Source: Wujia sp.
GTDB lineage: Bacteria > Bacillota > Clostridia > Lachnospirales > Lachnospiraceae
DNA length: 64,000 bases
Direction of reading: 5' to 3'
Assembly (NCBI GenBank): GCA_051879955.1
Contig: JBJENA010000078.1
Span: forward strand, 1,618 to 65,617
Positions 39,717 through 42,343 of this stretch are shown here, in pieces. Within the stretch, counting starts at the first letter, position 1. Each line of letters starts with the position of its first letter. The notes under the pieces were generated by a model that did not search any database, had not been told where the DNA came from, and saw only the letters and a program-made list of their open reading frames with translations. Made by a program: the position numbers and the translations under genes.

Positions 39717-39745
39717 TTTCGAACCTCGCTTACCAGATTACATAT

Positions 39746-39797
39746 TTATCGACATTACAATTAGGTTGATTATAGCATAATATCTATTTTATGTCTA
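39746..39797 (-). promoter_or_regulatory. Tandem SigA and putative sigma-28 promoters for flbD-motAB
   Basis: TAGACA-N17-TATAAT with extended TG (39797-39769); TAAT-N15-GTCGATAA (39772-39746). Confidence 0.6.
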
Positions 39798-39807
39798 CAA
39801 AAGACTA

Positions 39808-39856
39808 CAAAAAATAAGATGGGAGAATCTTTCATTTTTCATAAAAGAATCTCCCA
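39808..39856 (-). terminator. Probable terminator after flgE
   Basis: TGGGAGA-T-TCTTT..AAAGA-T-TCTCCCA stem followed by TCTTATTTTTT. Confidence 0.6.
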
Positions 39857-39878
39857 ACTCTTACTTTATATTATTCCA

Positions 39879-41318
39879 TTATCTCTTCAGGTTTACAAGC
39901 TCCTCAAGCATGGAATCTGATGTTGTAATAATTCTCGAATTCGCCTGGAATCCTCTCTGTGTGGTAATCATCTCTGTAAACTCTGCGGAAAGGTCTACGT
40001 TTGACATTTCCAATACACCCTGTGAAATCTTTCCTCCATCTTCATCAATGGATGTTCCAATTCCATCAAAGTATCCGGAGTTCTGCGTAGTTGCATAAAC
40101 ACTGTTACCCAGGGATTCAAGTGCCATTGGATTCGCAAATGTCGCAACAGAAATCTGTCCTAACAGCTTAGTCTCACCATTTGTATATACGCCATACAAT
40201 TTACCGGTTTCATCAATACTTACATCATTGAGTTTACCCATGGAACGTCCACCACCTGTGGAATCAGTCGCACCACGCACCATCTTTGCTGTTGACTGTC
40301 CACTGGATTCATAACGAGTCAGATTTGAAAAATCGATATTAATTCCATCAACCTGCTGTCCGTTAATCACTGATTGGAAGACATCTCCTTTGACTGTCTG
40401 ATCATTCGATGTAATCTTCAAAGTCGCATTCTTTGCACCGTCAGCACCGGCATATACAAACGAACCGGAATCGGCATCAAACTTAAGCTGCAATTTGTTT
40501 GTTTGCTTTATGGTAATATTTCCTGCTGCATCTTTTTCTTCATAAGTCATCGTAGCACTGTAACCACCCGTGCCATTTTCAGCATTATATGGGCCTAAAA
40601 TTTCCACATTATTCGCATCTTTAATTGATTGCAACTCCAGGTTGTACACGGACTTATCATCATAGGCAGGATCCTGTGTCAATTTATATTTTACTGTGTA
40701 GTTATACCCCAACGAATCATAGATGGATACAGAAATAACACCACCATCTACAGATGTCAGATCCGGGTCTGTCATGTCAATATTTCCAGTCATATAGGCT
40801 TGTGTTGTCATCTCCGGAGAAGATACCTTATGCTCTTCTGATTCCGGATACAATGCGGATACGGTATCCTTTCGAATCTGAGTCGGATTATCAGGATCAA
40901 CCTGCCAACCCATAACCTGGTATCCCTGTCCATTTACCAGACAGCCGGAACCATCTACACCAAAGGAACCAACCTTTGTAAAATAATTTGTTCCACCACG
41001 ACCTACTACGAAGAATGCAGAACCAGAAAGCATCATATCGTATGTATTGTTTGTTGTCTGTGCAGAACCACTCTGTGTAATCGATGTCTGAATCGATGCA
41101 GTTTTTGCACCAAGACCAATCTGAGATGCATTCGTACCACCTGTATTGTTCGTTGCACCGGTTGCATTGGATGTGGTCTGATACAACACATCACTAAAAA
41201 GCACCTGCGCTGATTTAAATCCTGTTGTATTCACGTTTGCGATATTATTACCGATAACGTCCATTTTTGTCTGGTGTGTTTTCAATCCGGCAACACCGGA
41301 ATAAAGTGATCTCATCAT
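39879..41318 (-). CDS. flgE: Flagellar hook protein FlgE
   Basis: MMRSLYSGVAGLKTHQTKMDVIGNNIANVNTTGFK; LEMSNVDLSAEFTEMITTQRGFQANSR. Confidence 0.96.
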   Translation of the reverse strand: MMRSLYSGVAGLKTHQTKMDVIGNNIANVNTTGFKSAQVLFSDVLYQTTSNATGATNNTGGTNASQIGLGAKTASIQTSITQSGSAQTTNNTYDMMLSGSAFFVVGRGGTNYFTKVGSFGVDGSGCLVNGQGYQVMGWQVDPDNPTQIRKDTVSALYPESEEHKVSSPEMTTQAYMTGNIDMTDPDLTSVDGGVISVSIYDSLGYNYTVKYKLTQDPAYDDKSVYNLELQSIKDANNVEILGPYNAENGTGGYSATMTYEEKDAAGNITIKQTNKLQLKFDADSGSFVYAGADGAKNATLKITSNDQTVKGDVFQSVINGQQVDGINIDFSNLTRYESSGQSTAKMVRGATDSTGGGRSMGKLNDVSIDETGKLYGVYTNGETKLLGQISVATFANPMALESLGNSVYATTQNSGYFDGIGTSIDEDGGKISQGVLEMSNVDLSAEFTEMITTQRGFQANSRIITTSDSMLEELVNLKR

Positions 41319-41342
41319 AATTTTTGACCTCCATTTTCTAGA

Positions 41343-41394
41343 TTGTTCTCTTCTGTCATTCCGAGAACAAAAGCCTCCTGTACGGTCCGGCTTT
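41343..41394 (-). ncRNA. Candidate structured cis-regulatory RNA between the TIGR02530 gene and flgE
   Basis: AAAGCC-GGA-CC-GTACA-GG-A-GGCTTT then TTGTTCTC-GGAATGACAGAA-GAGAACAA; no U-tract after the second stem; ends about 10 nt before the flgE SD. Confidence 0.55.
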
Positions 41395-41788
41395 ATACTA
41401 TCACTGCGCCATCAATATTTGTAAATACAGCATCCTCTTCTCCCTGCTGCATAGCGGTAACTACCGTATTGTTTTTAACATTCACTATAAATGCAAGATT
41501 GTCCATCATAACCAGAGATTCCTGAATCTTCTTTGTTCTCGCTCTGTCTATACCTGAATTTAATCTTTCAAGCTGCGTATCGGACAATTCAATATTTCTG
41601 GTTTGTAACCGCTGATTGGCATGTTTGGAGAATTTAACGCCTTGAGACTGTTTCTCTGTCTGTTCTAAAACTTTGGCAAAACTGTTCTCTTCTTCCGTAT
41701 CGGATACCGGTTGAATCGGGTTTGCCTGTTTTAAATAGAGGTTTGCAGCCTGCGTCATGGATAAAAATCCGGCTTCATAAGCCTTCAT
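41393..41788 (-). CDS. TIGR02530-family flagellar operon protein
   Basis: SFAKVL, VKFSKHANQRLQTRNI, IVNVKNNTVVTAM, VFTNIDGAVI; between flgD and flgE; start at 41788 has a GGAGAGG RBS. Confidence 0.9.
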   Translation of the reverse strand: MKAYEAGFLSMTQAANLYLKQANPIQPVSDTEEENSFAKVLEQTEKQSQGVKFSKHANQRLQTRNIELSDTQLERLNSGIDRARTKKIQESLVMMDNLAFIVNVKNNTVVTAMQQGEEDAVFTNIDGAVIV

Positions 41789-41818
41789 GGCCATCCTCTC
41801 CTTCCCAATCATGTCTTC

Positions 41819-42343
41819 CTACGTTTCCTTTGGTGCTTCTGTATTCTTATCTGCTTCGCCCTTATTTACCGCATCCTGATCGATGGTTCCATCTTCTTTC
41901 AGATGTTCTTGCAGATACAGATAGTAATCATAATCTACTACAGAATCCAAATCCTCAGCCGGATAGTAGGTATCGTTGATGGATAAATATACATCTCCAT
42001 CCTTTACCGTCGCATACTCTACCAAACCACTAATCATGCTACTTGCTCCGGAAGCATCTGTTGTATTCATGATTACATACTGACCAACGAGATTCAAACT
42101 GTTTCCACGTTCCAATGTCTCACTGATATTCATCTGTGCTTCCAATGATGAATATTGTGCCAACTGTGACATATACTGTGTACTATCACTCGGATTAAGC
42201 GGATCCTGATATTGCATCTGTGTTACAAGCAACTGTAAAAAGGCTTCTTTATCCAAATCACCACTTTGTGACTTTCCCTTTGAAGATGCCTGATAGCTGT
42301 TTGATGTGTTCGCGATTCCGCTTACTACTGATTCAACCGCCAT
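41819..42343 (-). CDS. flgD: Flagellar hook capping protein FlgD
   Basis: LDKEAFLQLLVTQMQYQDPLNP, QLAQYSSLE motifs. Confidence 0.96.
   Translation of the reverse strand: MAVESVVSGIANTSNSYQASSKGKSQSGDLDKEAFLQLLVTQMQYQDPLNPSDSTQYMSQLAQYSSLEAQMNISETLERGNSLNLVGQYVIMNTTDASGASSMISGLVEYATVKDGDVYLSINDTYYPAEDLDSVVDYDYYLYLQEHLKEDGTIDQDAVNKGEADKNTEAPKET

Follow-up and report, generated by a model that had tools for sequence, protein, structure and literature searches.

A conserved two-hairpin RNA element at flagellar hook operons co-occurs with the TIGR02530 gene and likely forms with it a switch timing hook and rod production

Introduction

Coupling of gene expression to assembly through a regulator that is removed by type III export is known from the FlgM checkpoint and from translational repression by YopD, LcrH and LcrQ in Yersinia. 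At the RNA level, the partner switch of CsrA, FliW and flagellin relies on CsrA reading a loop GGA near the Shine-Dalgarno (SD) sequence of the flagellin mRNA; a CsrA site presents a conserved GGA in the loop of a hairpin, in most cases close to the SD. The RelE-fold nuclease RegB of phage T4 is a sequence-specific mRNA regulator that cuts GGAG in SD sequences. Box C/D and SECIS RNAs combine an N·N pair with tandem G·A/A·G pairs, and FxxxΦ is the consensus of the gate-recognition motif.

Zhang et al. (2012; PMC3482391) predicted that Firmicute flagellar operons encode a BECR-fold RNase related to colicins E5 and D, and raised the question whether flagella deliver this enzyme or whether it acts in the processing of flagellar RNA. 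Candidate cis-regulatory RNAs located at flagellar genes include Termite-flg (RF01729) and flg-Rhizobiales (RF01736) (PMC2864571). Fremin and Bhatt (2021; PMC8040213) listed HMP2_4503, HMP2_11826 and HMP2_12528, of 38–77 nt, near flgE or flgG/flgF in Roseburia, Oribacterium and Selenomonas.

Here we describe a two-hairpin RNA element between the TIGR02530 gene and the hook gene flgE of Wujia sp. The TIGR02530 protein, with its weakly predicted RelE/BECR-like fold and its flagellar-operon setting, is, we infer, very likely the RNase of Zhang et al. (2012). The available part of that paper gives no target RNA, regulon or export motif, whereas the present analysis supplies a candidate substrate and its co-occurrence with the gene. 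RegB is a phage enzyme with a short linear target in the SD; in contrast, TIGR02530 is a host protein whose candidate site is a two-hairpin structure outside the SD, and the structural similarity of the two reaches a Z score of only 3.3. FlgM acts on a sigma factor and on late genes, and both FlgM and YopD/LcrH/LcrQ are unrelated to TIGR02530 and operate without a covarying structured RNA. The CsrA-FliW-flagellin switch is likewise an RNA-level control of a flagellar structural gene that is tied to assembly, but the two-hairpin element marks hook and rod genes, has no conserved loop GGA and tracks TIGR02530 rather than csrA.

A search of Rfam 15 with positions 41343–41394 gave no match at E ≤ 10 among 4227 families, in line with a first-pass annotation made from the sequence alone, which could name no RNA family for the element. 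Termite-flg and flg-Rhizobiales, as presented in the available part of PMC2864571, differ from it in sequence and structure, and neither model matches it; in five element-bearing genomes the RF01729 model had no match over 40 bits (0/5), with weak matches (about 17 bits) elsewhere. The HMP2 candidates are confined to single genera, have 1–2 covarying bases and show no link to TIGR02530 in their table rows (PMC8040213). Compared by those rows, one or more of them may be a genus-level piece of the element family; HMP2_4503 may instead be a hairpin between flgE and flbD. A literature search, thin on subscription journals, found no description of the element, and the available parts of PMC5737381, PMC1950547, PMC5317091, PMC13460014 and bioRxiv 10.64898/2026.10.19.760177 do not contain it. 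Neither the element nor TIGR02530 is part of a known system in this role; their proposed logic resembles that of known export checkpoints.

Results

Architecture of the TIGR02530-flgE junction

The window (the whole stretch of 64,000 nt that was analyzed) carries the junction with the following features:

41343–41394, minus strand: two-hairpin RNA element, between the TIGR02530 gene and flgE
41370–41394, minus strand: hairpin P1, with an outer stem, a GGA/purine 3x1 internal loop, a C-G-closed inner stem and a variable cap
41343–41369, minus strand: hairpin P2, with a 7–8 bp stem, free in sequence but fully covarying, and the top N-GA-N-Y-GA-Y-N-GA-N (41362–41351)
41328–41332, minus strand: SD sequence of flgE, GGAGG, outside both stems
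39879–41318, minus strand: flgE, flagellar hook protein of 479 aa, downstream of the element
41393–41788, minus strand: TIGR02530/PF12611 gene, 131 aa from the likely start, 139 aa from the first ATG at 41812
41819–42343, minus strand: flgD, hook cap, upstream neighbor, with FxxxΦ at residue 35 for comparison

The TIGR02530 profile matches the window gene with 107.7 bits, above its cut-off. The 74-nt gap reported in the first-pass annotation is exact, with the TIGR02530 stop codon TAA at 41395–41393 and the flgE start at 41318 on the minus strand. Its first hairpin also folds as described (41394–41370: 6 bp, GGA/A internal loop, 2 bp, GUACA loop); this hairpin, P1, overlaps the TIGR02530 stop codon and is the most widely retained part of the element. 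For the second hairpin, the stem down to 41343/41344 and the loop at 41362–41351 (GGAA-UGAC-AGAA) stand, but 8 bp cannot be formed beside a 6-bp hairpin 1: only four U lie between the hairpins, so the two stems share U41370 and 6 + 7 or 5 + 8 bp result. The two hairpins constitute the predicted minimum-energy fold (−16 kcal/mol, z = −3.1; 3 of 200 shuffles were as good), and searching for the two motifs as one pattern gave a single match in the window and none in 100 shuffles. Conservation and covariation in homologs confirm that the element is far beyond chance.

No terminator-like site overlaps the element and no conserved U-run follows P2, and GGAGG (41332–41328) starts 10 nt past hairpin 2; the earlier reading that this is not a terminator is thus upheld. 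The same annotation had called most other junctions of the cluster much shorter. This is correct for the fliK-like gene and flgD (21 nt) and for flgD and TIGR02530 (6 nt to the first ATG or 30 nt to the likely start), but not for flgE and flbD, which are 162 nt apart. The latter gap (39717–39878, minus strand) contains a long AU-rich hairpin at about 39806–39870 followed by U-rich bases; it folds with −40.1 kcal/mol (z = −4.6; 0 of 200 shuffles as good) and may be a terminator or a stabilizing stem at the flgE 3′ end that could bound a processed flgE message. A weak sigma-70-like site (9/12) at 41397–41425 on the minus strand ends just ahead of P1; with three such sites found vs. 2.3 expected, it is at chance level. 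The source assembly is 79.7% complete and lacks flgF/flgG, csrA and DUF6033.

Covariation and consensus structure of the element

Covariation was evaluated on 97 junctions aligned with MAFFT. They were selected from a de-duplicated set of 140; long or short-loop variants were excluded. Results showed strong covariation in both stems, as the hypothesis of the first-pass annotation requires: 96.6% of 1261 cells were paired and 12 of the 13 pairs had changes on both sides. None of 500 shuffles paired as highly, and pairing fell to 36–51% when the partners were slid. On the same alignment, RNAalifold recovered both outer stems unaided. In the consensus, P1 consists of a stem, a GGA opposite one purine, a C-G-closed inner stem and a variable cap, and P2 of 6–8 bp free in sequence capped by N-GA-N-Y-GA-Y-N-GA-N. 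In an alignment of 99 matches fitted to the model, the second inner pair of P1 switches from C-G to U-A in 20 of 98 cases. This covariation fixes the register of P1 and thereby rules out the k-turn alternative (G·A/A·G and a 1-nt bulge).

The loop of P2 was examined in 218 unique elements. As the pattern used to collect them requires GA, GA counts are biased, and the set includes kin that do not count as independent. Loop positions 1 and 12 covary (MI 0.50 vs. up to about 0.08 in shuffles), with the pairs G·A (53), U·U (33), U·G (33), C·A (24), C-G (22) and C·C (19), while G·G and C·U are absent. As the two positions covary as non-Watson-Crick pairs, a closed stack of N·N, G·A and A·G topped by six bases is indicated, i.e., a non-canonical pair together with tandem GA pairs probably closes the “12-nt loop”, which would end in a six-base cap and resemble a k-loop. 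The GA pattern noticed in the first-pass annotation is therefore part of the consensus, but its three equivalent single-stranded units are doubtful. With the k-loop, box C/D and SECIS cores P2 would share a stem topped by N·N, tandem G·A/A·G and a terminal loop; it differs by a third invariant GA in the cap, and bacterial L7Ae homologs do not bind k-loops. A k-loop is defined by tandem G·A/A·G on a stem, a flanking non-canonical pair and a terminal loop (PMC3884654). Shortened P2 loops of 8–11 nt, with one or two GA or none and an intact P1, occur at L041, L047, L051, L058, L206, L207, L211 and L220, and these lineages offer natural variants for dissecting the P2 loop.

Position of the element relative to genes

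Among 251 flgE junctions, 200 had the full pattern. In these, P1 starts at a median of 3 nt past the upstream stop codon and within 5 nt of it in 119 of 200, whereas the distance from the end of the loop to the start codon, with a median of 37 nt, ranges from 16 to 376 nt. Since this distance is so variable, SD occlusion is not the conserved mechanism, and with the SD outside both stems the element is not an SD-occluding stem, in agreement with the first-pass annotation, which had argued against a plain one. A conserved alternative stem, terminator or SD pairing was sought among homologous junctions and none was found. RNA assemblies from four runs of four studies span the junction of an A. 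thermocellus-like locus; being contigs, they carry no transcript ends or levels.

Co-occurrence of the element with TIGR02530

TIGR02530 is present in 33 of 41 relatives, including the source genome, and in 163 of 251 genomes of a phylum-wide draw. It is absent from all 14 control genomes of model organisms, four of which, including Bacillus subtilis and Escherichia coli, have flgD. For the search of these sets we used R1, a covariance model of the element, which scores the window element at 56.3 bits. All 18 held-out test loci were found (25.7–57.1 bits, with two at 17–21), and the decoys, 80 of 120 viral-contig loci that match a loose DNA pattern (TIGR02530 in 0/120), reached at most 14.7 bits.

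Whole-genome searches covered 80 of the 93 held-out TIGR02530-positive genomes and 80 of 88 TIGR02530-negative ones. R1 matched 78 of the 80 positives; on inspection, the junctions of the two missed genomes showed a variant P1 beside an intact P2. A strong match was seen in none of the 25 negatives that have flgD (0/25), and an unfiltered search of these 25 loci gave at most 9.4 bits. In 24 of them flgE directly follows flgD. They span 14 families, three of which (f33, f48 and f99) also contain TIGR02530-positive members with the element. In the 40 relatives the element is found in 32/32 TIGR02530-positive and 0/8 negative genomes, part of the positives having trained R1. The element is thus tied to the TIGR02530 gene (78/80 vs. 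0/25), in agreement with the co-occurrence that the first-pass annotation raised for testing, though these counts overstate the number of events because kin are not independent.

Two genomes (G273, G066) have strong element matches without a TIGR02530 match, both at flgF-flgG; these are fragmented assemblies without flgD, in which flgE is absent or cut at a contig end. Two matches of 22 bits in TIGR02530-negative genomes (G076, G242) were dismissed as non-flagellar and incomplete, and an additional match of 23 bits in the genus (G008) as lying inside a coding region.

TIGR02530 was found neither in viral contigs, where two weak matches proved to be T4-like head genes, nor on plasmids. A TIGR02530 homolog of phage G is named in the available part of bioRxiv 10.1101/2024.12.16.628780; our viral searches did not recover it. 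One record deposited as an unverified bacteriophage (L061; MT835480.1, 34633–40926) has the order flgD-TIGR02530-element-flgE and looks like bacterial chromosome.

Additional copies and taxonomic range

The first-pass annotation treated the element as a feature of flgE, which did not hold: it recurs before flgG, a flagellin gene and DUF6033-like genes. We fetched 40 regions around element matches untied to TIGR02530, which comprised 7 flgE junctions and 33 extra copies. Of the latter, 29 precede flgG (14 confirmed by NCBIfam, the rest by N-termini); one of the remaining four stands before a flagellin gene, two after flgF with a glycosyltransferase or LCP gene next (L334, L348), and one before a small ORF near an IS200 transposase. 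The flgG copies sit in a separate operon without TIGR02530. As such copies stand far from TIGR02530, in a separate operon, a trans-acting reader is implied.

Four copies are present in G138 and three in G072. In both genomes flgF and flgG are split and each has its own diverged copy (L334, L359 and L352 in G138; L348 and L355 in G072), and the fourth copy of G138 precedes the flagellin gene. In L361:776–1252 (G246:C80) an orphan element is followed after ~300 nt by an IS200/IS605 transposase, which adjoins a short ORF whose start resembles that of the DUF6033-array genes.

Eight further copies in the window's genus precede ORFs of unknown function, five of them with weak DUF6033 matches, and 4 of the 5 genomes concerned have 8–17 DUF6033-like paralogs. 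Tandem arrays of DUF6033-like ORFs, several preceded by the element, are seen at L462 (G004:C6:34500–40500), L458, L459, L461 and L463; their ORFs have flexible-looking N-termini and FxxxΦ-like motifs, and the arrays are candidates for flagellum-secreted proteins of gut Lachnospiraceae. All named targets of the element are export substrates or have FxxxΦ near residue 27–30, as found in 5 of 8 downstream ORFs checked.

Outside genome collections, R1 matched 65 of 80 metagenome loci with TIGR02530 at E ≤ 1. A structural descriptor detected P1 in 69 of 71 complete metagenome junctions and P1 with the 12-nt loop in 38 of 71 (shuffles 0.08 and 0.000). P1 alone is a loose criterion, as it matched 8 of 25 negative regions, in contrast to 0/25 for P1 plus P2. 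The full P1 and P2 were present in 141 of 175 Bacillota junctions vs. 38 of 71 metagenome junctions, and many loci have a reduced GA loop or none. With names of metagenome loci taken from identical or clustered proteins, the range includes Chloroflexota (L428, 40.7 bits), Calditrichota (L431, 42.2 bits), Armatimonadota (L381, 21.7 bits) and Thermoleophilia (L399, P1 only). The TIGR02530 protein at L378 is identical to that of Acetivibrio thermocellus. In a scan of genome contigs, the best 80 matches were mostly from Lachnospiraceae. The element is therefore a conserved cis-acting structured RNA across Firmicutes, as had been suspected, and beyond.

Predicted fold and motifs of the TIGR02530 protein

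The AlphaFold2 model of TIGR02530 has a core pLDDT of 88, and its first 40 residues are at 55–59. The top 15 VIA-align matches are all RelE/HigB/ParE/YafQ-type toxins or Cami1, which we take to be RelE-related (Z 4.5–5.6, below the trust level of 8; rmsd 2.9–5.4), and T4 RegB (Z 3.3) and colicin-type and CdiA RNases follow as weaker matches. Foldseek gave no match at E ≤ 0.001 in the PDB and viral sets, a search of PDB sequences with the family profile found no relative, and the ESM Atlas returned only clusters of the same family (0.79–0.80). DUF4258 matched 21 of 45 members weakly. The model comprises two helices, a 3-strand meander and a separate C-terminal strand. The BECR RNase fold has N-terminal helices followed by a 4-stranded meander, with a conserved N-terminal histidine and an S/T in a late strand (PMC3482391). 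At the sequence level, both BECR-type residues are present in TIGR02530, as H64 is invariant and T119 (strand 116–122) and T131 are invariant too. Taken together, a RelE/BECR-like RNase fold is weakly predicted. Two motifs of the protein map as follows:

41621–41629, minus strand: S-x-H motif (S62–H64, 139-aa numbering), invariant
41666–41680, minus strand: FxxxΦ motif FAKVL, residues 37–41 of the 131-aa protein, after the low-confidence N-terminus

S62, H64, K94, T119, T131 and D134 are invariant in both alignments; the S-x-H motif together with R68, R72, K94, T119, T131 and D134 makes up candidate active-site or RNA-contact residues.

FxxxΦ stands ahead of the core in 237 of 239 homologs (18% in shuffles), at a median residue of 36 and between 25 and 45 in 229, a position narrowed by the length filter used in choosing start codons. 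The motif thereby lies as in early export substrates, at least ~24 residues after a flexible N-terminus and in a FlgD-like place, and appears to resemble the gate-recognition motif of exported rod and hook subunits. In Salmonella FlgD the latter comprises residues 36–40 (PMC8983047). FxxxΦ of TIGR02530 starts a helix modeled at pLDDT 75–80, which may simply pack on the core.

Discussion

The element is present jointly with TIGR02530 and missing where the hook operon has lost that gene, for which reason the two likely constitute a joint switch that times hook and rod production to flagellar export. On present sequence evidence, the element is best read as a putative protein-binding or processing site, and it is likely to be the substrate of the flagellar-operon BECR RNase. 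Direct binding by the TIGR02530 protein is probable. Cleavage rather than binding alone falls slightly short of an even chance, as does, to the same degree, export of the protein as an early substrate; as the direction of control we infer repression.

Our preferred reading, to which we give a probability of about 0.4, is an exported RNA-binding or RNA-cutting checkpoint that would act on flgE and flgG messages. The TIGR02530 protein would bind or cut mRNA at the element and thus hold back flgE and flgG as long as the gate is shut; a working export gate would then export the protein itself, and flgE and flgG would be released. This would correspond to the FlgM logic at the RNA level, suited to a long operon whose rod and hook genes promoters cannot time. 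The checkpoint is supported by the flgG copies in trans, the RelE-like predicted fold, FxxxΦ at residue ~36 and the joint presence and loss of the element with TIGR02530. A broader form of it seems doubtful to us: a domesticated toxin-fold RNase, as an RNA-level FlgM, would recognize a tag on messages for the hook, the distal rod, some flagellin and lineage-specific secreted proteins, cut or silence them until the gate opens, and then be secreted.

The copies after flgF with a non-flagellar gene next (L334, L348) misfit a pure 5′ leader, and an element hugging the upstream stop could act on the upstream message. Processing would account better than a plain leader for the copies that follow flgF without flgG and for the position next to the upstream stop, neither of which is fully explained. 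This touches on a somewhat unlikely alternative, constitutive processing for stoichiometry, in which a cytoplasmic TIGR02530 would cut the polycistronic mRNA at the element and hairpin-protected fragments would stabilize hook and distal-rod messages over low-copy neighbors. The RNase-like predicted fold, two adjacent hairpins that could protect both new ends, the free SD spacing (16–376 nt from loop to start) and the retention of copies after flgF and before flgG where this pair is split (G138, G072) are all consistent with it; yet it leaves unexplained both the conserved low-confidence N-terminus with FxxxΦ at residue ~36 and the copies before DUF6033-like genes. The gate-motif-like sequence and the fact that named targets are all export substrates or resemble them would also suit an mRNA-delivery adaptor: TIGR02530 would bind without cutting and dock at FlhB via FxxxΦ, bringing messages for export substrates to the gate for coupled translation and secretion. 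The position independence of the element would agree with such a role, but the invariant S-x-H, R, K and T are more reminiscent of an active site than of a surface that only binds, and we regard the adaptor as improbable.

It is more doubtful still that another protein is the ligand (CsrA, the L7Ae homologs YbxF/YlxQ or a housekeeping RNase), with TIGR02530 merely a linked neighbor. The GG(A) of P1, the k-loop-like tandem GA of P2 and the presence of csrA in 48 of 53 element-positive genomes tested speak for it. However, of 25 flagellated genomes that lack the element 14 have csrA, and of 53 drafts that carry it 5 lack csrA, so that the distribution of the element does not follow csrA, and YbxF binds k-turns, not k-loops (PMC3884654). 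CsrA, which the first-pass annotation named as a possible ligand because of the GGA motifs, is unlikely in particular: the loop GGA is not conserved, with G at the first loop position in only 58 of 218 elements, and the same 14 of 25 genomes, TIGR02530-negative, have csrA and no element. The GGA of P1 lies in an internal loop, and the median distance from loop to start codon is 37 nt. A device independent of protein, i.e., a ligand-sensing riboswitch, an RNase barrier or a pause/antitermination element, is very unlikely. The purines that are invariant in both loops might make a tertiary contact, and the position inside operons is transcribed, but homologous junctions have no conserved alternative stem, terminator or SD pairing, and joint loss with one protein gene would need another explanation.

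Rod and hook subunits have no export chaperones (PMC8983047), and in the source genome the rod and hook genes form one long operon; how the synthesis of these subunits is timed and scaled is the wider question. With TIGR02530 in 163 of 251 genomes and absent from model organisms, a widespread layer of flagellar control may have been overlooked. Zhang et al. (2012) asked whether their RNase is exported or processes RNA, and a 55-nt RNA with a 130-aa protein brings this question within reach of testing. If TIGR02530 cuts, the two would form a compact pair of a site-specific RNase and its tag, and the element tag may flag new flagellum-secreted proteins. If the reading as an RNA-level FlgM is true, rod-hook assembly would be under a post-transcriptional checkpoint shared by several phyla, whose tag would mark flagellum-secreted proteins, among them those of the DUF6033-like arrays in gut Lachnospiraceae.
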